Assembly (NCBI RefSeq): GCF_964355755.1
Contig: NC_092675.1
Coordinates: forward strand, 29,732,912 to 29,796,911
Direction of reading: 5' to 3'
Source: Antedon mediterranea
Taxonomy: Eukaryota; Animalia; Echinodermata
Length of the DNA stretch: 64,000 nt
The position numbers and the translations under genes are program-made. This document shows, in pieces, positions 16,935-46,000 of this stretch; the stretch's first letter is position 1; each line of letters starts with the position of its first letter. The notes below the pieces were generated by a model. The model did no database searches, had not been told where the DNA came from, and was given only the letters and a program-made list of their open reading frames with translations.

Positions 16935-18173
16935 GTAATTTTGTGACAATTCTACTTCTTTCTAAAAAATAAATTGAATTATTATTATACTGATAATTAT
17001 ATAGTTTGTGTTAAGTACATAGATTTACAGATTCTGATATATTTTTAATTTTATAGTCGAGAAACATTGGTCTAAATTTTCGGATGCACTGTGCCTGTGT
17101 GTCCTGAGCCAGCGTCAAACACAGCAGTAACTGCTGGTTATTATCGACGAGAGCGGATGAGGTTTGATTTGACCCATCATGAGAAGCAGTCAGTAGGGGG
17201 ATTGTTTAGCCTAGAAAACGTTCGCTATATAATTATTCGTATTAATCCTTTCACAGTATAGTCACACTGTCAAGTAAGTATCTTTTGCAGAAAATGTTCA
17301 GCCTATTTTAATAATAATTCATAATTGTTATTTTATAACTTAAATTACAAATTTTAGTTTTACAAGCGAAGTGTAGTGACATCATAATTCACACTACAGC
17401 CTAGGGCCTAGGCCTATGTATGTGCGTGTTAATACAATATTAATAATATGATTTAACATACAGATCCTAACGAAATTAAGTAAAATTGTTGAAGATAAGA
17501 AACAAGAACAAGTCAGGCCGACTACAGGCTCCTAGAGCTGATACGTAAAGAAATCGACTGTCATTTGTATTGTACCAAATTCCATGCAAATTTTAGATCA
17601 TAATAAATAGCGCACATGCAATATATATATATATTTTAAAAAGTTTTTACAGTTTTTAAATGGGAATATAATTTTAAACCTAAATATAACATAATAATTT
17701 TAAGTGGGATTGATGTACAATTAATGTTTTTAATTGTAATTTTTATCTATGTATGATGTACTCTTGTGAATGTTTTGTTTATTTTACCATAATTATTTTC
17801 TGTCGAGGAAAACAATTTTTCCATGTACGCATTTTTATATATAGAACAAAAAAGATTTGATTTGATAAATGATTTCAGTGTGAACGCTACTCATTGTGAA
17901 TCATCTAACAATTGTGTCCAGTGCAAGGTGAAATCTAAAATAACAAAAGGTTGTGTGTGCGAAACTGATGTATAGTACAGTGTAACAATAGAATTGCATA
18001 ATACTAATTATTTTCAAAGTATGTTGGACTTTTGTTAGACTTTCCACAGGTCTTCAGTTAGGTTTTTTTTTATGTTATTGTTAAATATTAATATTTTCTG
18101 CTCAAGTATTATATGTTGTATGAAACGCCATGTATTGCATTGTATTGTTTCCTTTCTTTCAGACGATAATAAA

Positions 18174-20837
18174 ATGGCATCAAAAGAAGTTGTGATACCA
18201 CCTGAACAGACCACAACACCACCTGTATTGACGAAGGACAAGACAGAAGAAAATGTGCCACGCCCAGAACGAAGTTCTTCACCCGATGAAAACTGTTCAA
18301 TTTGTTTAAACCAATTTGAAAATCAGTCATTTACCGATCAATGTTTTCACAAATTCTGTTTTGTGTGTATTTTAGAGTGGTCAAAGGTCAAGGCGGTTTG
18401 CCCATTATGCAAGACCGCTTTCAAATCAATTATTCACAATATTGTTTCTAACGAGATTTACGATCAGTATCATCTTCAGCCAAATGCCCCAGCTACAGAG
18501 GAACATGAACAAGAGGTACGGAGATTCAGATATAGGACCACAGTGACTGATGACCACAGATATGCATGGGAGCGTCAACGAAACCATACATTTCTGCAGT
18601 TACCGCATGAAAATAGTAGATTTTACATGACTCATCATGAAGATCGGAGACGATTGCGTATTCAAAACCTGAGACGTTCCCTCGAGCAGAGTATTCGAAA
18701 TAACATGCGTTTGCAAAATCAGCGCAATGCTGCATATAATTTTCGTCGATATATCTACGGAGTTGGATCATATGTGAAGCAAACACGATTTAATCGGTTT
18801 TCAGGATATCGTGATATTTCACTTGGTTACTTCCAACGTAATCCTGCAGCGGCTTACCGGTTTGTGCCATGGTTACAGAGAGACTTGGGTGTGATATTTA
18901 ATGGAGATCAGAACCATGTACTTTTTGTTACAGAGTTGATCTTATCACTTATTCAACGTATAGATATCCAAACATATGAGTTCAGAAACAGTCTTGAAGG
19001 ATTTTTGCTCAGTAAAACTGATCATTTTGTTCATGAGTTCATCAATTTTGCACGTTCCCCGTATGATGTCACAACTTACGACCAGATGGCGCAATATAAT
19101 ACATCAAGACCTAGCGAACCCCCACCGGTGGATATTAACGAACCGTTGCTTGTCATCTCCAGTGATTCTGACACAGATGTCATTCTAGATTTGAGTTCCC
19201 ATTCAAGAGAAGAGGTTCTTCCCACTGCCTTCCCTCTGTTAGAATCTGACATTAATGTCATTCCTGGAACATCTGGATCCAGTAGCAATACACAGAATCA
19301 GATGGTGAAGCAGGAGAAAAAGGACACTACAGAAATAAATTTAACCAATGAATTATCTGATGTTGAGATCATTGGCTACTTACCACCTTATCGTGAACGA
19401 ACTCCAGTAGTGGTCACACTATCCTCTGACACAGAAGAGGATGAACAACCCACATGTAGGAAATGTGGCCAGCCTAAACACACTTCAAAGTGTAAGAAAA
19501 TTAAAAGAAAACCAAAAAATCCACATTGCATGTATTCAGCTTATCAATCTAGTTCTGCTGAAGATTTTAGTAGATCAAGTCAGTCAAGGAGTAGAAGTCG
19601 GTCAAGACCAAAGTCTGATAGAGTCAGCTCATCAAGAGATAAAAGTGTCACAAAAAAATTAATATCAACCTCGGCATCTTCATCATCTTCTGGCAATTAT
19701 TCGTCGGATACCGAAGATTATTCTAAAGATAAATATAACAAATCAAAATCTCGATCTCCATTTGAAAAATATGATAGTTCCGCTACGAAACATTGCAAAT
19801 CTTCCAACACTAGGTCTTACAAAAAACAACGTAGATCACGAAGTAGATCTGCAGGATTCGGATCACGTAGTAGGTCCCGTAGTAGATCACGCAGTATCTC
19901 TCACATTCGACAAATGTCACCATTCTACAAGACATCTAGAGATCGCTTCAGATCACGTAGCAGGTCAGGAAGTAGATCTCAAAGGACTCGCAGGTCTCGG
20001 ACTAGAAGCAGGAGTCGTGATAAAGAAGCTACCAGTAGATCCCACACCAGAAGTCACGAAAGAGACAATAGGCACAGGTCTTCTACAAAATTTGTAACAA
20101 AATTGTATTGGTCAGATGAATGTGACCAAAGTGCTGTGAATTATAGACAAGGTGATAATAATAAACATATTAGCAACAGAGAAAGTATAAAACGACACAG
20201 GTCATCGGAAAGAAGAAGCTCGTCGAGAAGCAGAAGTTACAGGTCGTCGTCGTCTTCCAAGAGTAAAGCATTATTTAAAAGAAAATACTTTCAAAAGGAA
20301 AGGTCAAAGGAAAGGTCAGTTGGAAAAATAGATTCTTCAAAAAGGCATAAACAGAGATCGAAAGAAAAACAAGAGGCAAGAAGAAAAAGAAGAGAGAAGA
20401 GGCAATTAGAAAAGAAGAAAAAAGCAGCTGGTGTTTCTAAAGATTTAATTGTTATTGATCTGACAGAATCTGCGGATGAAAAAGCAAGGAATAGAGAAGG
20501 TCAAGAAATGATAGATGACAGTTTATTATTTGAGGAAGAAGTTGGAACAGTGAACCAAGTTGAACATAATCTATCTTTTGGCCAAACCTCGGACGTTGGA
20601 CCAATGAGAGCAATGCTACTAGAAGATGTCACTCAGACGATTCCTCCATTGAATGTTGTAGATCCTTCGCTCGATGCTGTTGATGAAATATTTGGAAGGT
20701 CAGGCAACCAATCTTTAGAACCAATTCAAAAAACTGCTTTTGATTTGATGATAGAAGCAGAGAGAATGCGCCTTCAGGAGATGTTTGAGCAAAATCCTGA
20801 TTTAAGACGAGACGCCATGAAAGCTTACAATAAATAA
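18174..20837 (+). CDS. TOPORS: E3 ubiquitin/SUMO ligase Topors, single coding exon, 887 aa
   Basis: C3HC4 RING (CSICL...CFHKFCFVCILEWSKVKAVCPLCK), RRFRYRTT, PWLQRDL/HFVHEFINFARSPYD motifs, SIM-like motifs (LLVISSDSD, VVVTLSSD, LIVIDLT) and an RS-rich region. Acceptor TTTCAG at 18162 makes ATG 18174 the likely start. Confidence 0.95.
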   Translation: MASKEVVIPPEQTTTPPVLTKDKTEENVPRPERSSSPDENCSICLNQFENQSFTDQCFHKFCFVCILEWSKVKAVCPLCKTAFKSIIHNIVSNEIYDQYHLQPNAPATEEHEQEVRRFRYRTTVTDDHRYAWERQRNHTFLQLPHENSRFYMTHHEDRRRLRIQNLRRSLEQSIRNNMRLQNQRNAAYNFRRYIYGVGSYVKQTRFNRFSGYRDISLGYFQRNPAAAYRFVPWLQRDLGVIFNGDQNHVLFVTELILSLIQRIDIQTYEFRNSLEGFLLSKTDHFVHEFINFARSPYDVTTYDQMAQYNTSRPSEPPPVDINEPLLVISSDSDTDVILDLSSHSREEVLPTAFPLLESDINVIPGTSGSSSNTQNQMVKQEKKDTTEINLTNELSDVEIIGYLPPYRERTPVVVTLSSDTEEDEQPTCRKCGQPKHTSKCKKIKRKPKNPHCMYSAYQSSSAEDFSRSSQSRSRSRSRPKSDRVSSSRDKSVTKKLISTSASSSSSGNYSSDTEDYSKDKYNKSKSRSPFEKYDSSATKHCKSSNTRSYKKQRRSRSRSAGFGSRSRSRSRSRSISHIRQMSPFYKTSRDRFRSRSRSGSRSQRTRRSRTRSRSRDKEATSRSHTRSHERDNRHRSSTKFVTKLYWSDECDQSAVNYRQGDNNKHISNRESIKRHRSSERRSSSRSRSYRSSSSSKSKALFKRKYFQKERSKERSVGKIDSSKRHKQRSKEKQEARRKRREKRQLEKKKKAAGVSKDLIVIDLTESADEKARNREGQEMIDDSLLFEEEVGTVNQVEHNLSFGQTSDVGPMRAMLLEDVTQTIPPLNVVDPSLDAVDEIFGRSGNQSLEPIQKTAFDLMIEAERMRLQEMFEQNPDLRRDAMKAYNK

Positions 20838-21410: not shown

Positions 21411-22976
21411 ATCCTTATATAATATTTATATGTTTACTGAAATTCTCTCCCTCGGTATTACCTGTACTAATACCAGGGCTTGCTAATACACACACCAACA
21501 TTTTTGTTTTCACAAACCATTATGTGTGAGAGGCAGGGCTGGGGAAAGAAAGTGATATTAATGTACATTTGTACATTGTTTCTGTTTAAATGAAATTTAC
21601 AAATTAAATGTCGTGTTCACAAAACTACCATGTGATTATTATTTTGTGCTGTAGTAAGCATAGGCATGCTATTTCTCCCCATTACATGTTTACAAAACAA
21701 CAACAACTTGGCTCCTGCTATACTCTTAGTTCTGTTTAGTTTGACAAAAAAGTGATGTGCCCAAATATGGTAGTGATATGACATCATCATGTTCATATAT
21801 GGGCACATCACATTTGTTGTCACTAAAGTTTGATAGTGTAGACAGAGCTTAAGCAGCATTTAAATTGTGATCTCAGGGATTTTGTTTTCATTTCATTATT
21901 TTAACATTGCTTGATAAGTTTAAACAACATTTTAACCAAAAGTATGTATTACAATTATTTTCCTTGTTAATTGTATTCAATATATTTGACTACATACAAT
22001 AAATGAAATAATGTAGCAAAATAGTACTTATTTTAAGTTACAGTATTTTTATTTCTATAAATATTTCTTGTTAATATAATGATATAATTGTATAGTCTTA
22101 ATAAAGTTGACCTTGCTATGTTTTAAATATTTAAACAATTGCTGCATTGGGTTCAACTTAATTGAAGTACAGTTGTAATACAATAATAGTTTTTGTTTTT
22201 ATTTCGAATCTATATAAATACAATAAGCAAAATATATACAGGAATACACAATTAATTCTTAACACAGATTGGGTCCTAGAGCTAACTGTGTTATATGAGG
22301 GAATAGTGAAATTATAATATCACTCTTTCCTGGTTATAACATCTCAGATAACATATACTGTATAAAATGTAAATTCTTGGACTTTTTTTCTTTTTCAGTT
22401 ATAATTTTATTCCATGTTCCTAGCACGTTTGGTGGTTAATACACACTACATATGAGTTTATATTATTTATTAAAAATGTTTGTTTGATTATGAATGTACA
22501 TAATTGAATTAGAATAATAACTGTAGCTTGTTTTTGATAATATCAAAGCGGATGAAAGTAGTAAACATATTAAAGTCATCTATGCATATATTATTTTCAG
22601 TGTTTTATTTTCACCATGGATTTTCGCCAAAATATCTCAAAACAATCTCTGGAGTTCCTACTATATAGTACTAGACACGCATTGACGCAATTTTATGACG
22701 TGATGAAAAAAATATGTAAATATATTTATACTGTATAGAGATTAATCACACTACATGGAAGCAAAAATCAACTCTGACTATAAACTGTACTACATTCATT
22801 TTAATAAAGTTCAATATGTTTTGTATGCAACAACAAGGCTTATTTCTATTTAGGCACAGTGTTATTTTAATTAGTGATACATTTTATTTTTATGCTGTAG
22901 TGTTGTCATTTGATAACAAGACGAGTTCCTTTGCATTCTCTCCAGTAAATATACCGTGATAAATTAGTTTTGAAGT

Positions 22977-25900
22977 TCATCGTTTTAATCTGAGAAGAAA
23001 TGCGTGTCTACATTCCTTGCTTTCTTCCGGATAATACTTGTCATAAAAGTCTACGATGAATTCTTCAGGTTTGAATCCAAACCTCTGATATAAAAGCATC
23101 GCTGAATTGGTCGCAGACACATGTAGAGTTACGTCTTTACCCATGCAAGTCTAGCAAAAAACAGAAAGTAAACATATAAATTTAGTTTAACAGCAGCATG
23201 TGATCCATTGTGGGGCACTGAATTGTCTTACAGTTGTCACAGAAACCATACATTCCAACAGCCCACTTTAGCTAGGAGACTCCTGTATTTTAGACTCGTC
23301 TCCAAGCCTAACATTGTTTTCCACATTTTCTCCTGGAATACACAGATAACTAAATGGTGATGTATATGTGTGGTTTTCTGCATTGATAACAAAAAGGCAA
23401 ACACACAAGCAAAATTACAATATTTAAGCCATTGTATGTCCATCTACATCCATCATTTTTTTCTAAACGGAAAGGGGATCCCTCACATAGCCATAACGCG
23501 ATACCGCTTGTGACCTCCAGTTTTTTTAAACTTTAGATATATTGTATGACAACCCTACAAATAATAGAGTTCACCAATATTAAATAATACTAGTGTTTGT
23601 ACCTGTATAAGATGATAAACCATAAATGTAGCAATACCAGCACCTCTCCATTCAGGATGAACAAATAAAAATGATATATACGCCACATTATACTTAACAT
23701 CTGGTACCATGAACCCAAAACCGATCACAACCTTTTTATAAAGCGCCACCACGCTGAAGTCCGAATACTGTAAACATTCAGATACTGTCAAAGAATTTAG
23801 AAATAGTCCGTCAATTAATAATGTACTCCTCAGATACTAAATCTACGAATCATGTAAAGCTCTGCCTACACTATCAAACTAGTTTGACAAAAAAAAGTGT
23901 GGTGTGCCCAAATATGGTAGTGATATACCCAAATATAGTAGTGATATGACATTGTGTCCATAAATAGGTACATCACATTTCATATGTGCAAAAAATGTGA
24001 TGCCCATATATAGACACGATGAGGTCATATCACTATCATATTTGGGCACATCACATTAGTTTGATTGTTTGACAGAGTTAACAAATTAACAAACAAACCA
24101 GATTTATGAAACTTACAATCCACTCCTGGCCAGAAGAACTCTCTACATAGAGCATTCACAGAAGGAATGTGCTGTGGCCTTACATAGCAGTAGTCTATTG
24201 GTCCTAGAGGCTCGGGTATAAATGATGGATCCATCTTTGCCTTGTGAGACATCAATTCTTCTAATAAACGCAATTTCATTGGCCGGCTTTCAAAATCTCT
24301 TCTAATAAATGGTTTTAATACCCTGAAAGGATAGTAGTATCTTAACTCAAATAACTAATTGCTAAGCAATAGCACAAGTATTTAGATTGTTACTAGTAAC
24401 AATCCTACTGGGTACAATGATAAAAATAGTAAAATATATTTCTGTCCAAGACTAAAGCAATATTATTTTTTTTTAATAACAGTTTCCATGTACTAAAATC
24501 CAGGGAGCAGTTGACCAATGACATAAGGAGGGGAAGGGGGTGGTGGTGTTAGGAGGAGGCAGGGGCATTGGGGCTTGCTTCCTCACTTGGATCAAGGCAA
24601 TCTAACAATCCAGGATGCTGAGATCAAAGGGTTTATCTGTGGCTGCGACACGATCAGTTTGATGCCCTTCAACAGACTGTGACACATCACACTGCTGAGA
24701 ATATGTACATAGTACAGTACTGTCGGTATTTGTTGCAGCCAGACATAAGATCAAAGGAGTGTTACGAGTTCCTATCTTGGTAAGGCAACCTCAGTGTCCT
24801 GTTCGATTGCCTTGCTTGAATCTTGTTTTGGCAGGTTATAAGTCTCTGATGCGTAGGTTATTATTATTATCACAAAACTAATTATATCTCTATCTATTAT
24901 ATTATGCAAGTCCTACCTAGATGTATAAGGACTACAAATATTTTGTAATGACATCTCATCCTGACAACCAACAAGACGAGTGCGAAATGTAGGGTTCCTC
25001 ATCTTGTAATTCTTGACTGATGCTTGAGGTATCTATTCAATTGAAATTCAATTATATTGATTGCCACAAAAATACAGTATTATAATGTTATACAGTATAA
25101 ATCTTTTTTTTTTAAATTTATTTATTTTTTATTTATTCAATTTCTGCCATATACATAACAAAGAAGACAAAACAATTATAAAAGGAGGCACGGAAAGACC
25201 AAACAGGTGCTAAACACCTATGCTAGTTGGTCAACCCAGAACAGAGAAAAATAAATAAATTACGTTCTACAATAAAAGCATCGACAAGAAAGCGACCAAC
25301 TACACACATTTTCGATATCAAAATTATTTAAAAAATAAATATTGAGATAATTTTAAAGATAGCGCAGTAAAATTCTAAATAACTTTATAAATAGGTCTTA
25401 CCTGAAACCTGTCAAGAATCCTGAAGTCGGACGAGTAGCGTGTGATGTGTCCAGTTTTAGCGGTCATTTTTGGACTATGAACCTCAAAACACGAAGGGTC
25501 AATGGCAGTAGTGTTGGTGATTGATTGTAAGTAAGATTGTAGAGTTGCGTCTAAATCTAGCAAAGGGAGCCCTCGTTGTCTTTTCTCTTGACGTACTAGA
25601 AGCTTTCTACGTAGTCTTCGCGCACTAAGATCCGATTCAACGGCTTCGGGACAGTTTTCTAAGAACTTTAAAAGTTGTCTTTCTTCATAAATGCTGATTG
25701 GTAGAAACCTGGAAAAAGAGAGATAAAAACACCACAGAGAAAATAAAACTTGACACCATACACACAAAATGTAACAAAAAGTTATATAATAATAATAATC
25801 TTGCAAATCTTTGACATAGATTGTCATTGTGCAAACGTAATGTAAAGTAAACACTTTAAGATGTTGAAATATTTGCACACATACATTGATGTTTACACAG

Positions 25901-28900: not shown

Positions 28901-31900
28901 TGCTATAAACCATGATTAAAGGAATATGGTACAAAGTGGTAATAGTATAATTGCATACATGCCAACATCTGCAGTTAAAAAAATAGGAGGGGTGTTTTTT
29001 TTTTGTCTATCTATTATATACAATGGCATACATTTGTGTTGGTCTGTATGTAATTGGTACAAGTTTGAAGATGCTCAACTTGCTATTCACTTAGCTTATA
29101 TTGTCAGTAGTTGTCTTTGATGTGTCGTGTCAAAATCATTCTGTGCGTGCACAGTTTTTCGACTTGGCTGCTATGTAGGAGAACCACCTTGTTTTTTTTT
29201 ATTGCTGACCCATTCTGAGGTGGTGATACCCACCGAGGTGATACCCACCGAGGTGATACCCACCGAGGTGATACCCACCGAGGTGATACCCACCGAAATG
29301 AAAGTGTCTTTTACATTCTTCACATTGCAACTGTACACTTTCTTTAGTATTATCACCACAATAACAAATACTTTGTTCTGATGCACTTTCATTTTCCTCC
29401 TTTACAGGATCCATCTTTCCAACCTCCTCATCTTTTCTCTCTTGATCTGTTTGTTTCTCTGGTGGTGGTGGTGCACAGGTGCCAGGACTTGTGTCCATTG
29501 AAACAACATCAATCTCGTCATTTTCACCCTGAAATTAAATTGTTTTATAAATCTTGGAACATATTTCTGGTTTCTAAATACCGACCTCTCTTGATATTAA
29601 TTGTGGGAGTGTCCTGATAATGATATCTTCAGTCATCTTCCGCGACTCCCGCTACAATTCGATTTCTTGTGATATTTTGGATAAGCAAAAAAAAAACATT
29701 TCACTCAATTATAAACAGATCACAGACCAATATAAGAATCTAGCAGTACTGTATGGAACGCCTCCTCTGCCTTCAGTTCACATTTATCATGCAGTACACA
29801 CCAATCGTAATGCAGTACACACCAATCGTCATGCAGTACACACCAATCGTCATGCAGTACACACCAATCGTCATGCAGTACACACCAAACATCATGCAGT
29901 ACACACCAATCGTCATGCAGTACACACCAATCGTCATGCAGTACACACCAATCGTCATGCAGTACACACCAATGGTCATGCAGTACACACCAATTGTCAT
30001 GCAGTACACACCAATCGTCGTTCACATTTATCATGCAGTACACACCAATCGTCATGCAGTACACACCAATCGTCATGCAGTACACACCAATCGTCATGCA
30101 GTACACACCAAACATCATGCAGTACACACCAATTGTCATGCAGTACACACCAATCGTCATGCAGTACACACCAATCGTCATGCAGTCAAATATTGCGTAA
30201 TTTATACCGCCACCTATCGACAAAATCGAATATCACGTGAGTTTTATTAGACGGCTGTAAAACTAAGACTATTTAAACTTCTTTTATGGAATTCAATAAT
30301 TGCAATGGCCTCCTAGCCTATGGAACGCCTCCTCTGCCTTCAGTTCACAATGGTCATGCAGTACACACCAGTCGTCATGCAGTACACACCAATGGTCATG
30401 CAGTACACACCAATGGTCATGCAGTACACACCAATGGTCATGCAGTACACACCAATCGTCGTTCACATTTATCATGCAGTACACACCAATGGTCATGCAG
30501 TACACACCAATCGTCATGCAGTACACACCAATGGTCATGCAGTACACATCAATCGTCATGCAGTACACACCAAACATCATGCAGTACACACCAATTGTCA
30601 TGCAGTACACACCAAACATCATGCAGTACACACCAATGGTCATGCAGTACACATCAATTGTCATGCAGTACACACCAATCGTCATGCAGTGAAATATTGC
30701 CTAATTTATACCGCCACCTATCGACAAAATCGAATATCACGTGACCTTTATTAGACGGCTGTAAAACTAGGCCATCGACTCTAAGATTTCTTTTATGTTT
30801 GACATACTGTACTTATTTTAACCGCTACACATCTCTGTGAATGCTCTGTTTTTTATATATACAATAATTTATTATGCGAGACACAGGCGCGGCTAGGAGG
30901 CCATTGCAATTATTGAATTCCATAAAAGAAGTTTAAATAGTCTTAGTTTTACAGCCGTCTAATAAACCTCACGTGATATTCGATTTTGTCGATAGGTGGC
31001 GGTATAAATTACGCAATATTTGACTGCATGACGATTGGTGTGTACTGCATGACGATTGGTGTGTACTGCATGACAATTGGTGTGTACTGCATGATGATTG
31101 GTGTGTACTGCATGACGATTGGTGTGTACTGCATGACGATTGGTGTGTACTGCATGATAAATGTGAACGACGATTGGTGTGTACTGCATGACAATTGGTG
31201 TGTACTGCATGACCATTGGTGTGTACTGCATGACGATTGGTGTGTACTGCATGACGATTGGTGTGTACTGCATGACGATTGGTGTGTACTGCATGATGTT
31301 TGGTGTGTACTGCATGACGATTGGTGTGTACTGCATGATGATTGGTGTGTACTGCATGACCATTGGTGTGTACTGCATGACGATTGGTGTGTACTGCATG
31401 ACGATTGGTGTGTACTGCATGATAAATGTGAACTGAAGGCAGAGGAGGCGTTCCATACTAGCCGCGCCTGTGTCTCGCATAATAAATTATTGTATATATA
31501 AAAAACAGAGCATTCAAAGAGATGTGTAGTATGGAACGCCTCCTCTGCCTTCAGTTCACATTTGTCATGCAGTACACACCAATGGTCATGCAGTACACAC
31601 CAATCGTCATGCAGTACACACCAAACATCATGCAGTACACACCAATCGTCATGCAGTACACACCAAACATCATGCAGTACACACCAATCGTCATGCAGTA
31701 CACACCAATCGTCATGCAGTACACACCAATGGTCATGCAGTACACACCAATGGTCATGCAGTACACACCAATCGTCATGCAGTACACACCAATCGTCATG
31801 CAGTACACACCAATCGTCATGCAGTCAAATATTGCGTAATTTATACCGCCACCTATCGACAAAATCGAATATCACGTGACGTTTATTAGACGGCTGTAAA

Positions 31901-34900
31901 ACTAGCTATTCAAACATTATACTACAGCAATATGGAACGCCTCCTCTGCCTTCAGTTCACATTTATCATGCAGTACACACCAATCGTCATGCAGTACACA
32001 CCAATCGTCATGCAGTACACACCAATGGTCATGCAGTACACACCAATCGTCATGCAGTACACACCAATCGTCATGCAGTACACACCAAACATCATGCAGT
32101 ACACACCAATCGTCATGCAGTACACACCAATCGTCATGCAGTACACACCAATGGTCATGCAGTACACACCAATTGTCATGCAGTACACACCAATCGTCGT
32201 TCACATTTATCATGCAGTACACACCAATCGTCATGCAGTACACACCAATCGTCATGCAGTACACACCAAACATTATGCAGTACACACCAATTGTCATGCA
32301 GTACACACCAATCGTCATGCAGTCAAATATTGCGTAATTTATACCGCCACCTATCGACAAAATCGAATATCACGTGAGGTTTATTAGACGGCTGTAAAAC
32401 TAAGACTATTTAAACTTCTTTTATGGAATTCAATAATTGCAATGGCCTCCTAGCCGCGCCTGTGTCTCGCATAGTAAATTATTGTACATATAAAAAACAG
32501 AGCATTCACAGAGATGTGTAGCGGTTAAAATAAGTACAGTATGTCAAACATAAAAGAAATCTTAGAGTCGATGGCCTAGTTTTACAGCCGTCTAATAAAC
32601 GTCACGTGATATTCGATTTTGTCGATAGGTGGCGGTATAAATTACGCAATATTTCACTGCATGACGATTGGTGTGTACTGCATGACGATTGGTGTGTACT
32701 GCATGACAATTGGTGTGTACTGCATGACCATTGGTGTGTACTGCATGATGTTTGGTGTGTACTGCATGACGATTGGTGTGTACTGCATGATGTTTGGTGT
32801 GTACTGCATGACGATTGGTGTGTACTGCATGACCATTGGTGTGTACTGCATGACCATTGGTGTGTACTGCATGATAAATGTGAACGACGATTGGTGTGTA
32901 CTGCATGACCATTGGTATGTACTGCATGACCATTGGTGTGTACTGCATGACCATTGATGTGTACTGCATGACGATTGGTGTGTACTGCATGACCATTGTG
33001 AACTGAAGGCAGAGGAGGCGTTCCATACAGCAACTCACGCATGTCTACTACTACACCGCACGTGCTTTATGACTAAAATGGCTGGAAAAACTATTAAATA
33101 AATCTTGGAATCTTTAGGACGTAAAGCACGTGCGGTGTAGTAGTAGACTATGGAACGCCTCCTCTGCCTTCAGTTCACATTTATCATGCAGTACACACCA
33201 ATCGTCATGCAGTACACACCAATCGTCATGCAGTACACACCAATGGTCATGCAGTACACACCAATCGTCATGCAGTACACACCAATCGTCATGCAGTACA
33301 CACCAAACATCATGCAGTACACACCAATCGTCATGCAGTACACACCAATCGTCATGCAGTACACACCAATGGTCATGCAGTACACACCAATTGTCATGCA
33401 GTACACACCAATCGTCGTTCACATTTATCATGCAGTACACACCAATCGTCATGCAGTACACACCAATCGTCATGCAGTACACACCAAACATTATGCAGTA
33501 CACACCAATTGTCATGCAGTACACACCAATCGTCATGCAGTCAAATCTTGCGTAATTTATACCGCCACCTATCGACAAAATCGAATATCACGTGAGGTTT
33601 ATTAGACGGCTGTAAAACTAAGACTATTTAAACTTCTTTTATGGAATTCAATAATTGCAATGGCCTCCTAGCCGCGCCTGTGTCTCGCATAGTAAATTAT
33701 TGTACATATAAAAAACAGAGCATTCACAGAGATGTGTAGCGGTTAAAATAAGTACAGTATGTCAAACATAAAAGAAATCTTAGAGTCGATGGCCTAGTTT
33801 TACAGCCGTCTAATAAACGTCACGTGATATTCGATTTTGTCGATAGGTGGCGGTATAAATTACGCAATATTTCACTGCATGACGATTGGTGTGTACTGCA
33901 TGACGATTGGTGTGTACTGCATGACAATTGGTGTGTACTGCATGACCATTGGTGTGTACTGCATGATGTTTGGTGTGTACTGCATGACGATTGGTGTGTA
34001 CTGCATGATGTTTGGTGTGTACTGCATGACGATTGGTGTGTACTGCATGACCATTGGTGTGTACTGCATGACCATTGGTGTGTACTGCATGATAAATGTG
34101 AACGACGATTGGTGTGTACTGCATGACCATTGGTATGTACTGCATGACCATTGGTGTGTACTGCATGACCATTGGTGTGTACTGCATGACCATTGGTGTG
34201 TACTGCATGACCATTGTGAACTGAAGGCAGAGGAGGCGTTCCATAGTAGACAGCGTGAGTTGCTGTAGTATAAAGTTTGTATATAGCCTTAGTTTTACAG
34301 CCGTCTAATAAAAGTCACGTGATATTCGATTTTTTCGATAGGTGGCGGTATAAATTACGCAATATTTGACTGCATGACGATTGGTGTGTACTGCATGACG
34401 ATTGGTGTGTACTGCATGACGATTGGTGTGTACTGCATGACGATTGGTGTGTACTGCATGACCATTGGTGTGTACTGCATGACAATTGGTGTGTACTGCA
34501 TGACAATTGGTGTGTACTGCATGACGATTGGTGTGTACTGCATGACGATTGGTGTGTACTGCATGACGATTGGTGTGTACTGCATGACCATTGGTGTGTA
34601 CTGCATGACCATTGGTGTGTACTGCATGACCATTGGTGTGTACTGCATGACCATTGGTGTGTACTGCATGATAAATGTGAACTGAAGGCAGAGGAGGCGT
34701 TCCATAGTGTAGCGGTTAAAATAAGTACAGTATGTCAAACATAAAAGAAATCTTAGAGTCGATGGCCTAGTTTTACAGCCGTCTAATAAACGTCACGTGA
34801 TATTCGATTTTGTCGATAGGTGGCGGTATAAATTACGCAATATTTCACTGCATGACGATTGGTGTGTACTGCATGACGATTGGTGTGTACTGCATGACAA

Positions 34901-35783
34901 TTGGTGTGTACTGCATGACCATTGGTGTGTACTGCATGATGTTTGGTGTGTACTGCATGATGTTTGGTGTGTACTGCATGATGTTTGGTGTGTACTGCAT
35001 GACGATTGGTGTGTACTGCATGATGTTTGGTGTGTACTGCATGACGATTGGTGTGTACTGCATGACCATTGGTGTGTACTGCATGACGATTGGTGTGTAC
35101 TGCATGACCATTGGTGTGTACTGCATGATAAATGTGAACGACGATTGGTGTGTACTGCATGACCATTGGTGTGTACTGCATGACCATTGGTGTGTACTGC
35201 ATGACCATTGGTGTGTACTGCATGACCATTGGTGTGTACTGCATGACCATTGTGAACTGAAGGCAGAGGAGGCGTTCCATAGTACTGTAGTCTGTAGTTA
35301 GTAAGTAGTAGAAATTATATACATTTTACATATCTGAAGATTGTTAATTTTATCCAAAAATATTGGGATAAATTGCATTTTTGCAGGAAAGCGGGAAACT
35401 GACTTCCACCATTATATTAATTAGGAGGAAAGTTGGGAGGTCGGGATGGAGGTATTCAAAACTTTTTATTTATTATTTAGACTAGCCTAGGATGATGATA
35501 TGGCTGCAAACAAGTTTTTTCAGGGCTGGTGCAGAGGGATACGCTGCAGGGGGATCCGCTGCAGGGGGCTGACACAATAAACACACTACAGAACAGTGTA
35601 GACTACAGTACACACATAGACATACTGCTGCTGCATGCTGCACACATCAAATGACTGTTTATCACATCGCCTAGTTATAAATGTCGAAGTTACTATTTCT
35701 ATCTATATACTATATGTTTTATATATAATTTCCATTATTTACTATTTTACCTGATCGCCACTAGTTCGGTTGATTTCCGACAT
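22977..35783 (-). CDS. KAT14: Lysine acetyltransferase 14 / CSRP2-binding protein (ATAC subunit), multi-exon
   Basis: Exons include 29295-29528, 28650-28764 (GDSFFKLVCCNC...ERLRLTW), 28409-28537 (QQVVILTLYNLSL...FRWKEDVCDFI), 27941-28092, 27319-27464 (ELKEKRSRTQ), GNAT exons (PIDYCYVRPQHIP, FLFVHPEWRGAGIATFMVYHLIQ) and a last exon ending HAFLLRLKR* at 22977. The first coding exon is uncertain: best candidate 35751-35783 (MSEINRTSGDQ|GTAAAA), alternative ~29586-29636. Confidence 0.93.
24590..24820. repeat. Degenerate inverted-repeat (MITE-like) element in a KAT14 intron
   Basis: CAAGGCAATC...CAGGATGCTGAG versus CTCAGTGTCCTG...GATTGCCTTG; inner TGGCTGC/GCAGCCA pair. Confidence 0.5.
25105..25340 (-). 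mobile_element. LINE 3' end, near-identical to ~60720-60938
   Basis: Reverse complement of the 3' UTR and A-rich tail seen at 60.7-60.9 kb. Confidence 0.85.
29217..29296 (-). repeat. 15-bp tandem repeat containing a KAT14 splice donor, about 5 copies
   Basis: (CGGTGGGTATCACCT)n on the - strand, starting at the exon end 29295. Confidence 0.9.
30319..31457 (-). mobile_element. Foldback transposon B (1139 bp), inverted, inserted in the spacer of A
   Basis: TSD CTAGCC at 30313-30318 and 31458-31463; its spacer is the reverse complement of the A/D/E spacer. Confidence 0.93.
31931..33027 (+). mobile_element. Foldback transposon D (1097 bp), inserted in the spacer of C
   Basis: TSD CAGCAA at 31925-31930 and 33028-33033; left arm 472 bp, spacer 174 bp, right arm 451 bp. 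Confidence 0.93.
33149..34245 (+). mobile_element. Foldback transposon E (1097 bp, near-identical to D), inserted in the spacer of C
   Basis: TSD GTAGAC at 33143-33148 and 34246-34251. Confidence 0.93.
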
Positions 35784-36802
35784 AATTGCTAAGCTTACAC
35801 GGTTACACCTGGTAGCCTCCTCTGGTTTTTTTGTTGACGGGAGGCAGAGAATACTATCGCGGAGCTAGCTCACTGCAGAGTGACTCGACCTCGAGCACAG
35901 CCAAAGTGAGCCCTCTATAGTCCAGAAAGTTGTCAGAAATAAATTGAATCAAGTCACAAAAAATTCTATTCTAGTTCTCAACTATTTAATTATCACAACA
36001 ATCATTAATGTACATTATTAAATTATTGTCACACAACATTTATACAATTTCATTTCTGTATCGAATCTTAATAAATAAATTGTACAAACTACATCTGTGT
36101 ATCCTACACAGAAATCTTTATTGCAATTTTGAAATATTTTGATTTGAATTTCTATAAACATATCAATGAAATGTAACAGTAGGTAGGCATGAGGAAGGAG
36201 AGAAGGAATGATAATACTATAATACTTTAGAAAGCCATGTCAAGGTGAATGCAGTGACAGAAGCAGCTAAAATACAAACTTTCTAAAGGTGCATTGGAAA
36301 TGAAAATACGGTATAGTAATGAGTTTTGAATCCTCATGACCCGGCATTCTTCTTATCTTAGGGCCTGTTCAGACCTACAGAGTTATGCTCTCATATTGTA
36401 CATGGAGTACAACTCAATAGGTCTGACCCAAAAAAAATTATTGGAAGCCACCTCTTACGACACGATCTTTCGTTTGTTATGACAGCTCAAGGTACAAGAA
36501 TAGTGTATCGATGCAAAGTCATGCATCAAAGATTTTTAACTTTAACCAATCAAATTTACTCCTGCATACCAGATTTGACCAAATCGGTGACCTAAAGTTT
36601 CAAATGAAAGCGTTAGTTAGGCAAATCTAAAAACTTTTCTGTTACGACGCTAATTATAATATGACATTGCTTGCGATATGAAAGCATAACTCCATGGATC
36701 TGAACATACCCTTATATACATTATGTACATAGCCAAGAATGTAAACTCGAAAAATTTATTTTTACTGATGTGGGGTTCTAAGGCAGTAGACTAAACTTGT
36801 CA

Positions 36803-37096: not shown

Positions 37097-40000
37097 CTAT
37101 CTCTTAGCTCCCTTGATAAGTCCATCTTGTATCAGCTTGTTGTACTCATTTAACTGATGTTGTACATCACGTACGATTGGTTGGTAGTCACTCTCCATGC
37201 TCTTGTTAGCAATGACTTATCAAACGGAAAAAGTTAAGAAAAAGCAAAATATTGAATGTATATCTATAATACGTAAAAAAGTTATACCATTAATATTAAA
37301 AGTTTACGAAGATAAATTAAATAGGTTTACACTCTAAATAATATTATCATAATAATATGGTTCAGTATAAGCAATATAAAAAGTTTGAAATCAAAATCTA
37401 ATTTGGTATTTTAATATTTAAAATATAAGGATACATTCTTTCATGACAAAGTTATTCTGTTCATGGTGTTGCCATTTCCGTTCCATGTTGCCAAGTTGTG
37501 TGAATGTCTCATTCTCGTTCAACTGTGCTTTCAGTGCTTCGTATTGGCTGGACAGCTCCTGCATGTCTGTATATAATGTATGCCATCATAAACAACTTTT
37601 TCATGAGAAATTCAACCTAACAATTACGGTTATAAAGCTCTGTCTACACTATCAAACTAGTTTCACAAAAAAAAAATGTGATGAGCCCAAATATGGTAGT
37701 GATGTGTCCAAATATGGTAGTGATATGACATCATCATGTCCATATATGGGCACATCACAATTTTTAGTCACATAAAGTTTAATAGTGTAGACAGAGCTTT
37801 AGAGTTTGGGCTTTATATGTCTGCCAATGTTTGTCTTTCTTTCAGAGAGTTCTCCTACTACAATCTTTTCAGACAAGACCTGATAAACATGTGTGAATAT
37901 TAACAATAATTATTCACAAAATGCACTCTTCAAATTTAAAATAAACAAAGAATGAAAATTCAATAGAAAGAACATATTTAGTATTTTTACCTTTTTTGTA
38001 AATTTCCTTTCTTTTTGCCAAAATTACTTTTTCCTGACCAAGTTTCTGTAAAAATATACAAAATAACATATGAATATATATCCAAACATCCCAAAAAAAC
38101 AGAGTACAACATGACACTTATATATCTTGATCTTGGGACTTTTGAGGATGTGCCTGTGTGTCCCTCCATCAATAAACAAAATAATGATAAGGAGAAAACT
38201 TTAAAATGTGGTTAAACGCTGTTTACACTATAAAAATGTGATGTGCCCATATATAGACATGATGATTTGGGCATATCACTACCGTATTTGAGCACATCGC
38301 ACTTTTTGTCAAACTAGTTTGATAGTGTAGACAGAGCTTTAGACCACTTACCTTTTTCTTTTCTTCAGCATTCTTCTTGACCGTCTCCAGGTCACTGAAG
38401 ACGTCCAGTTCACTCTGCATCTCGTCAATTGCCAATTTCAGTTGTTCCATCTCTTCTTTGATCTTCATCTCCAGTTGCTCAACTTTCTCAAGATCCACTT
38501 GTAGTCGGGTACTCTCTGAAAGAAAATAAAACATTGGTAGACACGTACAAAAGAGAGGGAATATTATATGTTAAATTAAACATAAAAAAATCAAGAATGG
38601 CAAATAAAATAGTTTGAGCTGTACAGGTTGTGAGTGGAACTAGTAACGATATTACTTGGATATCATCAAGAGTAAACTACATTTGATCGAGGATCCTTTG
38701 AAAATCAGATTCATGTTTTAAGTCTTTGGATGACATTTTCATGATTTTTGTACTCCAACTTAACTTAACTATGAAACTTTATGTGACAAAAAATGTGATG
38801 TGCCCATATGGAAATGATGATGACATGATATATGGGCACATCAAACTTTTTTTGTCAAATTAGTTTGATAGTGTAGACAGAGCTTTAGGCTGTGAAAGAG
38901 GATGAAAGTATGGGATTACTATGATCACTCACCACCAGCAAGAGATGATGCAGTGGCTTCAGATTTCTGCATCTCATTCTGTTTAAAATTCAAGTCATCT
39001 TGCATACGAGCTAATTCCTTAGGTGTTGGCATGTGCTTCTGTCGACCAACATTCTAAAAATAACACACCTCATTAACATGTCTACAATTAGTACAGGAAA
39101 GATAGGCTCAATAGAATTAGTAAAAGGTTGAACAAATTGCAACAGAATTTATTTATATTTCATTACAATGCATTTCTATAAGGTCCATATATGAACATAC
39201 TAAACGTCTAGAAAAATTCTGATAGGATAAATAGGTTTTTTCAAAGAAATTTTTTTATTACAAATCAAAATGGCCGCCAATTGTCTAAAAATTGATCAAA
39301 AAGCAAAAATAAAATACTTATAGCATGTATAATTTATATAGTTCTGATTGGCTTTAAACTTAATGGATAATTACATTATTATATATACTTACTTATACTG
39401 TAGTATATATAATTTATATAGTGATGATTAATTTACTTAATGAATAATTACAAATCATTTGATTTATTGATTGGAATGATAAATACAATAATACAGTATG
39501 TTGCAACTAACCCTGCTGATATGTCCAAGTAAGGCAACTATACTTAATGCATAATTACAAATCATTTGATTTATTGATGGAATGATAAATACAATGTTGC
39601 AACTAACCCTGCTGATATGTCCAAGTAAGGCAACTATACTTAATGAATAATTACAAATCATTTGATTTATTGATTGGAATGATAAATACAATGTTGCAAC
39701 TAACCCTGCTGATATGTCCAAGTAAGGCAACTATACTGCTCTGTAGCATCTCATTTCGCTCCTAAAAGAAACAAAAACAAATGGGAAAACACTGCTTTTA
39801 GATTCTACATTGTTCATAAAGCTCTGTTTACACTATCAAAAATATATCATCGTGTCCACATATGAGCACATCACATTTTGTAAGTGTAATAGTGTAGACA
39901 GAGCTTAATACAAGTTTTAAATAAAAAGGGTGAAAAATCATCCATCTCATACAAACACTACAAATACTGTACATACATACTACACTTACCAACTCTAGCT

Positions 40001-43000
40001 TTTTAGTTTCTTCAAAACTGTTAAAGAATTCTGAAAAAAAACAAAACAAAAATAAGTTCAATTACGAGACTGAACAATTTAAACAATGTTACCATAATGA
40101 ATGTGAATATATGCTATTAAAATAATTGAGAAAGAAACATACCAGATACCTGCAATAATGTTATGCTATTATGTGTTATACAATATGTGATAATCTACAT
40201 GGTAGATGGATGAAGCTATTGTTTTAACCATGTGACTATATGTGGCGTAGGTTTTTATATATTTATATTTATATATATTCAGGTTGGAAGTATCAGACCG
40301 TTAGGATAGAGTGCTCAATACCAAGGTAGAGCATAAATAAATAAAATAACAGCAGAAAACTTGGTTACTTCATTGTTTTAATCGCTACAAATCTGTTTCG
40401 TACGACCAGCATGTAGCTGGCGCACTCTTCAGGTGAAATATAAAAACATAAGTGACACAGTTATATCACAGGACTTAATTCAAGTGAGTCATCAGGAAGT
40501 CGTATACAATAGCCTATTGTTTCAATTAGATAAACTATTTGGATCTGCAATTTAGTAAGAACTTTTTCCTATACAGTATATATATATATTTTTGTTTCCT
40601 TTGTTCTTGAGCTATGGATTAATTTTTTTTATCCCGAAATAAAAGATGAATGAATAATTGTTATTATTTTGTAAATAATGAATGCCAAAATGTGCATATA
40701 TAAGATGACAAAGACACATACCAGACATGGTTTCTTCTCTCTTCTTCAATTCCTTGTACTTGCTATTCTTTTCACCTGTAATGCAACAAATAAATGCAAA
40801 AAATATGCGTATATCTCCAAGTGTACAATGTTTTAAAAAATTGTTAAAAAGTTTTTTTTCCTAAGGAAATTTAGATGTTCTATTTGACCTTGTATACTGT
40901 TCTAATTATTGTACAGCGATTTGGTCCTATAAATCTATATAGTATAGCATATAGTACACATACCATACCAATGATAACATCATTCTTAAAACACAATTGA
41001 CTAACTAAGACTGTAAAGAAATTGTTTCAATGAATATACCTTGATGGTCTTCTAATTCCTGATCCAATTCTTGCAGCTCATTTTGTAAGCTCATAACTTG
41101 ATCTTTAAATTCTTTCGTCCTAAAAGATATAATAGAAATATTAAACTTGAATGAAATTGATAGAAAACATTACACATTGTTGGCCTGACTGGTGTCTAGT
41201 CTGTCCAACAACATATTAGATGGGCCATCTTCCAAAAGACGGTTATACTTTATTGAATGTTGAGATATCTGTTCTATTTTGTTCTGAATTAGGATGTGAA
41301 TGTTGATCACGCATAAACATAATATCACCATATCATCCCTATACATAATATTTTTAAAGGGGAAATGTAAAGTGGAGAGGTGCAAATTAATAAAAAAATA
41401 AATAAAAGGCCCCCAGGCATTTATTTTGATGAGGGTCCTTTATTCAAATAAATATGGTAAACAAAAAATCTGAAAAAAGAAATACTCACTGTTTTTCAAT
41501 TCTTGCTATCTCTTGGTTGTCCTCCTTGACTTGTCTTAGTAGTTTCTCTCGTTCTTCAGCTGGTGAGCCTTTTGATTGCTCCTCTTGGATCAACTGCATC
41601 TTCTTTGTTTCCAATTCGTGAAGTTGTTCGTACAAACGAACTGCTTCTTGTTTTACTTGTGACTGAGACAGTTCCTGAATTTAAACAATAACATTCATAA
41701 CAAAATATAAATATTAATACACACAATAGAACCGAACCCTTGGGACACTCCAATCATGGGACACTCCAATCATGGGACACTCCAATCATGGGACACTCCA
41801 ATCATGGGACACCCCAATCATGGGACACTCCAATCATGGGACACTCCAATCATGGGACACCCAATCATGGAACACTCCAATCATGGGACACTCCAATCAT
41901 TGGACACTCCAATCATTGGACACTCCAATCACGGGACACTCCAATCACGGGACACTCCAATCACGGGACACTCCAATCATGGAACACTCCAATCATGGGA
42001 CACTCCAATCATGGGACACTCCAATCATGGGACACTCCAATCATGGGACACTCCAATCATGGGACACTCCAATCATGGGACACTCCAATCACGGGACACT
42101 CCAATCATTGGACACTCCAATCACGGGACACTCCAATCATTGGAACACTCCAATCATGGGACACTCCAATCATGGGACACTCCAATCATGGGACACTCCA
42201 ATCATGGGACACTCCAATTAAGAGTGAAAAAAGTTTTATGTTTGACCCAGGGAAGAGTGATGTACAGTAATTTCAATCTTCTCTGGTTTAATCTAACCCA
42301 TATTCAGGTGGACACTCCAATTAAGAGGACACTTTCTGGTGAAACAAACAAGAAATTATTTAGGTTTAAACACTACATCCACCCACATTTCAGGGGTCAC
42401 CTATACTCTGTTAGATCCCAAAGGTTTACTAGGCCCATAGGATTTCTACTGTATACATACATCTTCCAGGTTTTCCTTTTTTGTGCTGATCATGTCTAAC
42501 TCTTGTTGTTTGCCCTCTAAATCTTGAGACAGCTTTTCACTTGTCTTCTTCAGGTGAACATATTTCTGTTTCATTACAGGGTCCTGTCAATTAGAAAAAA
42601 AAAACATTAATTGGCAAGAAATTAACATTCGTCAATTAAGTACAATCCTAAACTTTATTCTGACAAGCAGTATTTAAACATAAAGCTCTGTCTACACTAT
42701 CAAACTTTATGTGACAAAAAAAATGTAATGTGCCCATATATGGACATGATGATGTTATATCACTACCATATTTAAGCATATCACTACCATATTTGGGCAC
42801 ATTGTCAAAACTAGTTTGATAGTGCAGACAAAGCTTTAGGATGATTCTTACCATGTCTTCTATAAGTGTGTCTGCCATTCGTCTACATTGCTGAATCTCT
42901 TGCTCAATTTGCTGAATTTGATGTTCTTTACTAAATAAAAATAAAACAGTTGTCACATAAATAACTAGTCTATCTTGCCTTTGTGTCTAAAGCTCTGTCT

Positions 43001-46000
43001 GCACTATCAAACTAGTTTGACAAAAAAAAGGTGATGTGGTCAAATAGGGTAGTGATATGCCCAAAGATGGTAGTAATATCATCATCATGTCCATATATGG
43101 GCACATCACATATTTTGTCACATAGAGATTGATAGTGTAGACAGGGCTTTACAGAAATTGTGCAACTTTCCTTCAATCAATTGTAGTATTCTGATTAGAG
43201 AATACTCCCTCCATTTCTGTATTAATTCTTTTCTGTTTCCCACTTTCTGTCAAAGTAGTAGCATTATAATAACTATAACTGTGCTCCTTGTTAAACATGT
43301 TAATGAAAGGAAGTTTAAATACTTACTCTTGTCTTTCAGAGAAAATTACATCTATATTTTTTGCTTCCTCTTCATTCATTTCTTTAAGCTGTAAACAATT
43401 ATTATTGGTTATTACTACAACTATTTATTATAGTCAGTGGCGTAACAGCTATGAGCGCTCACTGGCTAAATCCAGGGGCCCCAAGCCATAAGAGGGCCAG
43501 GGCATGAGCAGCCTCAGTGCAATTGCCTAGCATTGGAGGCCTGTTAGAAGTGTTAAACCAGGGGCTTTTGTTCCCTGTGTTACGTCAATGGCTTGACAAA
43601 ATCATTTATAATAAAAATAGGACCAGAACTAATAATGATTTACGTTATGATTTACGTTATCCCACTTTATTTTTATTACGATTAACAATCAACAGTATTT
43701 TGTGTTAAATGATGGTTCTTCCAAAATTAACCACATACCTCATTATAATCTTCAATAACATCATCCATCTCAGTGTCTGTGTTTACTTTATCAAGTAGCT
43801 AAGAAAACAATAAAATGATTGTTTATGATGTCATAATATAATGTCTCACTTAAATGAAAACCCCTTTTTAATTCTATACCAACATCTCAATCGTCTTCAA
43901 CTCCAAGGCCTTAATGACAACCTCAAACATGTGTGTGCTTTTTAGGGCAAGTAATCTTCAACCCCAATGCCTTAATGACAACCTCAAACATGTGTGTGCT
44001 TTTTAGGGCAAGTAACATACAATAACATACTAAACTGCTGTAGGTATATTTTGAAATTAGATTCCCTAATTTATAGTAAATGGACTTATATTATTTGAAT
44101 ATTTTGTATACAGTAGGTGCATACTGGAATAGTTGTTGTGGGCTAAAGCTATTACAATACCATTGTTTACACACCATATTGTAATCTCCCAGTTGTCCCT
44201 GCAGTTGCTTAATTTCATTAGCTTTCAACTCCGCTCTGCGAAAACAAAACATTTTCATGACATATATATAATAATAATTTTTAGATTTAAAAATCAGTGA
44301 CAAAACAATGCACAGAAAGACAAATCACCAAATAGACCTTTATGCAGCTAGTTTGACATTATATATTAATACCTTTTCTCATATGATAAAAAGCTATCAT
44401 TCTCGTCATTAACTGTGTCTATTTCTTTTTGTAGTCTTGCGTTTTCAGTGGCTAACTCACTCATCTTGGTGCGTAGCAGTCCAAGGTAGTAGGACGAGTC
44501 CATAACTACACGCTGCGGACCTATTAATATGCAGCAATTTAAAAGATTTTAAAACATAACCATTTTGTTTGTATTTGTTTTCATTCAGCCAATTGTGATT
44601 CAAAAACTCATTTATTTAGCAAATTTCAAATTGGCACAATATAACATCTTTGACTATTAGTTGATCATTTAGAATAAAATGATCACCTATTGTTATTGTA
44701 TGGTATCTTAAATTATGATGATTATTATTATTTTATTATATACTAAACACATTTCGAAAGACAAGGCTGAATAAAAACACAAATAAGAAATATCAAGGGA
44801 GACAACAAAGCAGAAATTACCTTTCTTAGCTGTCCTCATACCCCCTAGCCCTTGCTGTGTTGTGGGCCGATCAACTACATTTATCCTGGAATCTAGCACT
44901 AATAATGAATAAAATAAACAATTTTATAATTCTAAATAAAAGTAGAAAATTGCATATTATTCAGAATTACCAAACAATTTAGCCACATGTAAATTGATGC
45001 CATGTATCTTTCTTGAAGTTGATTCAATCAAACTCACCCCCTCCTGTTGGTAATGTACCCCCTCTGGTTCCTGGTCTCCCGGTTCCTGGTACTTGCTATG
45101 AATTAAAAAAAAAAAAGTCATCTAGAATATTAGCATAGCACTGTTTCTTGATATTGTTGATGTGCTATTGTCATATTACATTGAATTTATAACATAACAA
45201 CTCACACAGCAGGAGTAACATTATACAAAGTTATTGTATACGCTATCCTGCTGTAAGACTTGGTGCTTACCTCATTTAAGAAAGTACCAACTCTCACAGC
45301 AGGAGTAATACAATTTTATTCAGTAATTTGTGACTAGACTGGAAAGATAAATTACAATATTCTAAAACAGTAATTTAATGACTAACTTTTTATATATTTA
45401 TTTTAAAGTTTATGATGAAAGTAGTGCAGAATTAAAACTGCAAAAATAAGCTGCAAGCAATGGCAAATGTACAGATTTTAAACATATTTTTAAATAATAA
45501 AACTGAATGTAGGCCCTATGGCAGACTGTTGTTTACCATTGCACCTGTAGGAACTCGCATTCCTGTTGCTGGTGGCGCTTGTTTCATTCCCGATGCTGGT
45601 CTCATTCCTGTTGTTGGTCGACGACCTGAACTACTCATTGGACGACTCCTGAAAAAAACCAAATCCAAATTTTGATTATTAAACATTCTTATTAATTAGG
45701 CCTAGCCTACCTAGTCCTCTAGCCTAGCCGTAGATAGCAGGGAGATGTAAATAAAAAAATAATAATTTATTACATCTCCCTGATTTTATAGTAGGCTAAT
45801 TTTGGTAAACAGGCAATGAGGCTAGGCTAGGCCTAGTGTCGTTTTATTTACAATTTACTTAAAAGACCCCATCACATCCATCCCCAACATGTAGTCTATC
45901 TAGCCTAGGCAAGCTGGTACTTCTCATCAAGAGGAGACCACCAGCAGGCTGCGGAGAGCCAATTTCAGCCAGTGAGTGAGTGTGCAGAGAGAGAGTCGGA

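Follow-up and report, generated by a model that had tools for sequence, protein, structure and literature searches.

How do copies of one transposon family that is present at low number come to lie inside each other, and what decides where within the resident copy the newcomer lands? The question is raised by an apparent 5.5-kb satellite in a 64-kb window (the whole stretch of Antedon mediterranea DNA that was analysed, within which all positions are numbered), which can be read as mobile elements stacked on what is likely one allele, making a 5′ intron nine times as long as it would otherwise be. Target choice is understood for few eukaryotic DNA transposon families and IS3EU, to which this family likely belongs, is almost unstudied; a low-copy, likely polymorphic family stacked three deep offers a countable test of self-targeting against a hotspot with local hopping.

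Structure of the nest

Stack-based pairing of a 20-base terminus recovers five left and five right ends, which resolve into five elements, A to E, nested three deep, all of them without genes, with TATGG..CCATA ends and with a perfect 6-bp target site duplication (TSD) whose sequence differs in each of the five. Element A (29752..35281, forward strand, 1202 bp net of its guests, TSD GTACTG at 29746-29751 and 35282-35287) is the outer host. Its spacer holds the A-type element B in inverted orientation (30319..31457, reverse strand, 1139 bp, TSD CTAGCC corresponding to spacer positions 48-53) and element C of a second subfamily (31530..34706, given without strand, net 971 bp, TSD GTGTAG corresponding to spacer positions 114-119). 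C in turn carries the A-type element D in the left stem of its core (31931..33027, forward strand, 1097 bp, TSD CAGCAA at core positions 21-26) and E, the sister of D, in the right stem (33149..34245, forward strand, 1097 bp, TSD GTAGAC at core positions 136-141); the spacer of D is uninterrupted at 32403-32576. With guests removed, the lengths of A to E are all congruent modulo 21, as had been stated in a preliminary description of this DNA, which omitted C, the 971 bp of which fit as well.

A scan of the entire window for TAYGG..CCRTA pairs lying 60 bp to 15 kb apart and flanked by a 6-bp repeat returned A, B, C, D and E alone, and a search for the terminus, the unit and the inner arm with up to three mismatches gave no match in the window outside the nest. 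Parse and scan thus confirm base for base the five elements, ends and TSDs that had been proposed, and the earlier statement that the window holds no other copy is borne out. The nest is real as a sequence.

Contigs of four of the nine listed runs (X1, X2, X5 and X6) were aligned to two stretches, 401 bp around the D spacer and the left flank with the first 49 bases of element A. X1 and X2 are one sample, which may be the assembly's own source, X5 is from another study of the same organism (organism A) and X6 is from a second organism (organism B); X5, which holds spliced joints, is guessed to be RNA, and none of the listed runs is recorded as such. It is very improbable that the nest arose in assembly, through the collapse of a repeat. 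Its five perfect TSDs are distinct, the host sequences rejoin exactly, once the guests are taken out, to the intact 174-bp spacer of B, D and E, every arm has its own pattern of variants, and the contig across the left junction of A is without differences; a spacer contig of X1 moreover breaks exactly at the TSD of B, although this is weak, one of four predicted junction breaks having been matched. What speaks for an artefact is that the outer left junction alone is confirmed in contigs, that no compared contig spans the nest and that the best runs may come from the assembly's own sample.

An origin of E as the mirror image of D, through a strand switch within the palindrome of C, was rejected: E has the same orientation as D and a different TSD, and it lies at core positions 136-141, where the mirror site of D would be 150-155. 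The long reading frames in the arrays were judged a by-product of the 21-bp period, and the two that were scanned inside the nest had no Pfam match and hence no transposase family. Outside the nest, 134 of the 146 frames of at least 62 aa, the 12 left out being tandem-repeat frames, gave no match to a transposase family, and no autonomous element was found in the window. An Rfam search over 29500-36800 gave one match, of 28 bits against a cut-off of 75, which lies on an inverted-repeat junction and was put down to chance, and exact searches with the terminus or the doubled unit gave 0 matches in viral contigs and metagenome contigs.

Element anatomy and kinship

In each arm, a terminus of 36 bp is followed by 13-19 of the 21-bp units and these by an inner arm of 79 bp, so that element A reads terminus, 21-bp-unit array, inner arm, 174-bp spacer and mirrored right arm. 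The terminal inverted repeats are perfect over 31 bp (34 in C) and continue in imperfect arms of 375-514 bp, of which the 79-bp inner arm is nearly invariant across all ten. Foldback elements have long inverted arms of tandem subrepeats around a short middle, and the arms of 21-bp units around a centre of 174-179 bp support the earlier assignment to this architecture.

A, B, D and E are alike in their asymmetric spacer of 174 bp and in an internal duplication of 13 bp that each of their arms contains. C lacks the duplication and has a 179-bp core unrelated to that spacer, mostly palindromic, in which about 65-70 bp on either side continue the inverted repeat (folding energy -65 kcal/mol, against -9 for the A spacer). 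A second subfamily, palindromic almost throughout, is represented by C; as the duplication is absent and the core differs, the place of C in the 21-bp length series is a coincidence. Terminus, 21-bp unit and inner arm are kept between the two subfamilies despite the unrelated cores.

By their ends, TSD and repeat length, the first five terminal bases being compared, the elements likely belong to IS3EU. IS3EU elements have TA..TA termini, in fungal families TAYGG..CCRTA, and a 6-bp TSD (PMC10045372, PMC12730594), which supports the assignment suggested in the preliminary description; TAYGG..CCRTA ends and the 6-bp TSD are found here in five of five elements, with terminal repeats longer than 30 bp. 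The Repbase rule (PMC4455052) is that the terminal 11 bases align with those of a classified family.

Between D and E, 3 of 1097 sites differ (0.3%); the two lie 121 bp apart and have two spacer changes in common, at both of which all contigs compared in the four runs read the letter of A and B. Being sisters, they reduce the independent inner insertions to probably three rather than four. Neither B nor C is a local copy of A, as C belongs to the other subfamily and B is without the private spacer change that A carries. To judge by such divergence, the elements are young.

In run X1, spacer contigs have a depth of 1652-1884 against 26-30 for the single-copy flank, a ratio of 57-73, so that the family amounts to roughly 60 genome-equivalents. 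The core type of C is seen as loose ends in X1, X5 and X6, and both core types as well as the arms are also present in organism B.

Host gene and alleles

The nest lies in the first intron (29529..35750, reverse strand) of a gene, with GT..AG splice sites read in the sequence; the intron measures 6222 bp with the nest and 686 bp without it. The upstream exon (35751..35883, reverse strand), placed by contig evidence, is likely 5′ untranslated, and its far end is approximate, being drawn from 129 loose letters. The second exon (29294..29528, reverse strand), supported by contigs and a domain match, contains the start of a PHD-like zinc finger, and a domain match places a GNAT exon of the same gene at 23558-23836 on the reverse strand. 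The match of a spliced contig of run X5 to the window stops at 29532 and is taken up again at 35755, which places the nest in the first intron, some 470 bp away from exon 1 of this transcribed gene. Structure and atlas look-ups gave no name for the gene, which may be KAT14/CSRP2BP-like. The neighbouring TOPORS frame is 69% identical to its counterpart in the feather star Anneissia japonica, with other sequences reaching 47% or less at similar coverage, so that the host is likely a crinoid.

At the left junction of A, a 52-letter contig of run X2 crosses from flank into element without differences, at a depth of 177 against 254-315 in the flank. Another flank contig of X2 ends at 29753, and a 1603-letter contig of X1 with a depth of 29 matches the flank to this same base, the last that the filled and the empty site of A have in common, and continues for 1107 letters beyond it. 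On an empty allele that contig would, by computation, end at 36396, within an imperfect inverted repeat (36354-36396) and thus at a plausible contig break; relative to the window it has a 9-bp insertion and one substitution. A filled and a likely empty allele of the A site are accordingly present in one sample, and the nest is likely polymorphic. If so, all five insertions would have taken place after the two alleles had separated.

Excess of self-insertion

If insertion is taken as uniform in a growing nest, the probability that four events all fall in the centre is 0.0005-0.0006, which reproduces the odds of about 1 in 1000 calculated before, and that none falls in the arrays 0.016; with three events the values are 0.003 and 0.04. 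With the arrays blocked, the probability that all hits are in the core is 0.035 for four and 0.08 for three events. The odds against chance hence drop, from a probability of about 0.0005 to one of 0.003-0.08 with three events and/or blocked arrays, and all these figures describe one locus and 3-4 events, with the spacer defined after the data had been seen.

The meeting of copies at all is a larger anomaly than their position within the element. Chance nested pairs are expected at 0.005-0.03 genome-wide (assuming 60-120 copies and 250-400 Mb) compared with four in this one nest, and at about 60 genome-equivalents four nested hits cannot be random. There is a large excess of self-insertion at this locus, and junctions of the family with itself are seen at further loci in two organisms. 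In X1 and X2, among the rows listed, two arm units of a variant copy stand before a terminus, and in X6 two of the listed rows have a terminus that follows arm sequence. Insertion into arms is the simplest reading of these arm junctions; near junctions alone are seen, and a terminal duplication is possible. They argue for self-insertion elsewhere and against a spacer-only rule.

The main rival to an attraction between copies, possible though somewhat unlikely in our estimate, is that the locus itself is the attractor: open promoter chromatin with short local hops would collect insertions, the arrays being passively avoided, for instance wrapped in nucleosomes, and the spacer being open linker. 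The nest does lie in a 5′ intron, at the distance from exon 1 given above, of a gene seen spliced in X5, and Drosophila P elements favour genes at their 5′ ends, show insertion hotspots and make local hops (PMC2577343). D and E, close sisters with changes that contigs in all four runs lack, fit a local hop, and if only the 686-bp intron and the nest are open to insertion, all four events fall within the nest with a probability of 0.35. This account is opposed by the remaining 686 bp of the intron, where no family copy, fragment or other recent element was found, and by the rest of the window, equally without copies. With intron open and arrays blocked, moreover, the probability that all hits are in the core is still 0.003 (four events) or 0.01 (three), and the self-junctions in two organisms lie at other loci.

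Position of the insertions and target motif

The preliminary description had placed all inner insertions in the spacer and none in the arms. This holds for B and C, which lie in the spacer of A, while D and E lie in the inverted stem of C; that the arms are spared is true of the arrays of 21-bp units and of the inner arm of 79 bp, but does not extend to the stem of C. The four insertion points are 20, 38, 47 and 55 bp past the inner arm, with no fixed-distance pattern. The self-targeting that had been proposed is upheld as a strong excess of self-insertion but not as a spacer-specific landing pad: D and E are in a stem and likely not independent, and in X1, X2 and X6 ends abut arm units elsewhere. 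No spacer-to-terminus junction is among the 24 of 51 loose-end rows listed for the spacer, where single-copy junctions would be near or under the 1% filter; recurrent spacer sites of high frequency are thus not seen.

Preference for a target hexamer as the cause of the spacer hits was rejected, since it would predict array hits instead. The five TSDs lean to S-T-n-n-A-S, and among the other flanks, of which those without a final G were used, the consensus terminates in AC in all four runs (13, 10, 4 and 5 contigs) with an agreement of 0.48-0.59. The arrays of A contain GTnnAC, the apparent target hexamer, 38 times, its spacer 0 times. Leave-one-out motif weights, which like the motif rest on five sites and a weak consensus, place 84-91% of the targets of A in the arrays and 4-7% in the spacer, against array hits in none of the four cases. 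As the motif is dense in arrays that are not hit, to assume such a preference only adds to the difficulty of explaining the pattern.

Two further accounts address the position of the hits. A hairpin or cruciform extruded from the long inverted repeat could offer an unpaired loop or a strained centre preferred by any transposase, and in agreement with it a short centre lies between arms of 375-514 bp, and B and C are within the unpaired spacer of A. Drosophila Galileo copies, which are built in a similar way, contain nested insertions, and stem-loops have been proposed to lie behind their breaks (PMC2775673); the guests described there, however, are of other families, and all four guests here are of the same family as their host. 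As D and E, in addition, are found in the paired stem of the C core outside the central loop, such extrusion seems improbable. A similarly low probability attaches to the view that self-insertion is real but unbiased in position, hits in the arrays having been lost or missed by deletion or assembly collapse between the 21-bp direct repeats. Unit numbers of arms vary between copies in 21-bp steps, so that arrays change fast, and arm junctions are present in contigs; loss would account for the position alone and not for copies meeting, and young elements such as D and E, 0.3% apart, have had little time for it.

A model of insertion into resident copies

The explanation that we lean towards, with a confidence slightly short of even, is that transposase on a resident copy attracts new copies, shields the 21-bp arrays and leaves the centre open. 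It starts from five separate events of insertion, every one marked by a 6-bp duplication of its own, and from a site of A that contigs of one sample present as filled and, in our interpretation, likely empty. Transposase supplied in trans would move both subfamilies via the common terminus, 21-bp unit and 79-bp inner arm, and no fewer than three donors (B, C and the ancestor of D and E) would have struck the same few hundred bases, with E or D likely derived from a short local hop or a repeat hit by one donor. Putative binding of transposase on the resident copy would capture incoming ends, for which the centre would be the nearest free DNA. As 21 bp are two helical turns of DNA, the period would align bound proteins on one face of the molecule. 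The arrays would be shielded rather than forbidden, because arm junctions exist at other loci.

Several findings weigh against such tethering. The probability that none of the hits is in the arrays is just 0.016-0.04 and, with arrays blocked, that all are in the core 0.035-0.08; the vicinity of the first exon of a transcribed gene is a classic hotspot setting, and the arm junctions seen elsewhere speak against strict shielding. A broader proposal, in which the arrayed arms of an animal IS3EU lineage serve as a putative docking platform, transposase on a resident copy drawing newcomers of either subfamily into the unbound centre, and Russian-doll stacks are the normal way of spread that spares host genes and the elements' own ends, we consider rather unlikely. 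If tethering is true, arrayed foldback arms would gain a role in target capture; if instead the locus is a hotspot, the nest is neat but ordinary.

Comparison with known systems

Self-insertion is known in other transposons and apparently not yet described for IS3EU, a group largely unexplored in structure and in function according to PMC11934779. No report of IS3EU nesting or target choice was found in the open-access literature searched. From IS3EU and GingerRoot as described, the elements differ in the absence of a coding region, in arms of 375-514 bp that consist of 21-bp units and in a three-level self-nest.

Plant MITEs, such as Castaway and Gaijin of rice, Tourist multimers of maize and DcSto of carrot, insert into themselves, and the idea of a 'safe haven' has been published (PMC5172404, PMC3695323). 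Like them, the elements are non-autonomous, have inverted repeats and insert into their own family; unlike them, with their hundreds to thousands of copies and short ends, they combine about 60 genome-equivalents with long arrayed arms and a depth of three. Jiang and Wessler 2001 is said to be the primary paper on self-inserting plant MITEs.

Galileo, a foldback element, resembles the family in its long inverted arms, short middle and nested guests, and differs by 7-bp TSDs, guests of other families and a pile-up ascribed to low recombination at inversion breakpoints (PMC2775673). With the P element (PMC2577343), the family has in common self-insertion, a setting 5′ in a gene and, as it seems, a palindromic target motif and local hopping. 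The hotspot of P, however, is in its own terminal repeat, at a motif that scores well (PMC2577343), whereas here the best-scoring sites, those in the arrays, are avoided.

Should tethering hold, it would tie an animal transposon to the end-directed insertion of the bacterial IS3 relatives. In IS911, a member of the IS3 family, the transposase at a resident end directs insertion a few bases from the tip. Unlike those of IS911, the hits in the nest lie 400-600 bp inside the element, 20-55 bp past the inner arm.

Further copies and subfamilies

Two kinds of sequence from the sequencing runs bear on the wider extent of the nested foldback family. A contig of 1268 letters at a depth of 30, found in run X5 from another study, begins with the element terminus (as compared at 29741-29800) and continues into a flank which resembles the target of A, the outermost element of the nest, for 11 letters and diverges beyond. 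This contig most likely represents another family copy in a target similar to that of A, possibly a copy that lies within a transcript. Runs X1 and X2, both from one sample, contain a variant of the central spacer (at 32526-32596) with one extra base and seven substitutions, the depth of which in X1 is about 1/8 of that of the main spacer; the variant represents a third subfamily, absent from the window.

Insertion site and host gene

Matches of 10 bases to the 21-bp unit and to the terminus are located at 35606-35615 and 35815-35824, both less than 550 bp from the target of A, which itself shares seven bases with the 21-bp unit. That such look-alike sites drew A to this position is only weakly hinted at, because three separate 10-base terminus matches stand against approximately two expected in 58 kb. 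Within the nest, six AATAAA motifs on the strand of the host GNAT/PHD gene (at 30243, 30747, 30868, 31882, 32380 and 33598) could cause premature transcript ends on the filled allele, which carries the nest.

Other repeats and neighbouring genes

Short inverted-repeat elements that are 70-92% alike and have ends near AAAGCTC..GAGCTTT form a dispersed, older family, with members at 21737-21853, 23855-23980, 37633-37804, 38232-38344, 38768-38888, 42681-43153, which looks like two paired copies, 48329-48432 and 60274-60421. Upstream of exon 1 of the host gene, an imperfect inverted repeat pair (36354-36718; 43 bp, 79%, approximately 365 bp apart) is perhaps an old element. Several young minisatellites at 41741-42218, 51160-51830, 58150-58630 and 59022-59407 have periods of 16, 30, 31 and 24 and matches of 92-98%; inverted arms were not noticed at their flanks.

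The GNAT/PHD gene lies tail to tail with one long plus-strand frame (18039-20834), which encodes a TOPORS-like RING ligase. Three plus-strand frames matching Pfam SPATIAL (53327-56998) are probably exons of one more gene. A minus-strand coiled-coil exon (38226-38570), with weak, unrelated Pfam matches only, is presumably IFT74-like.
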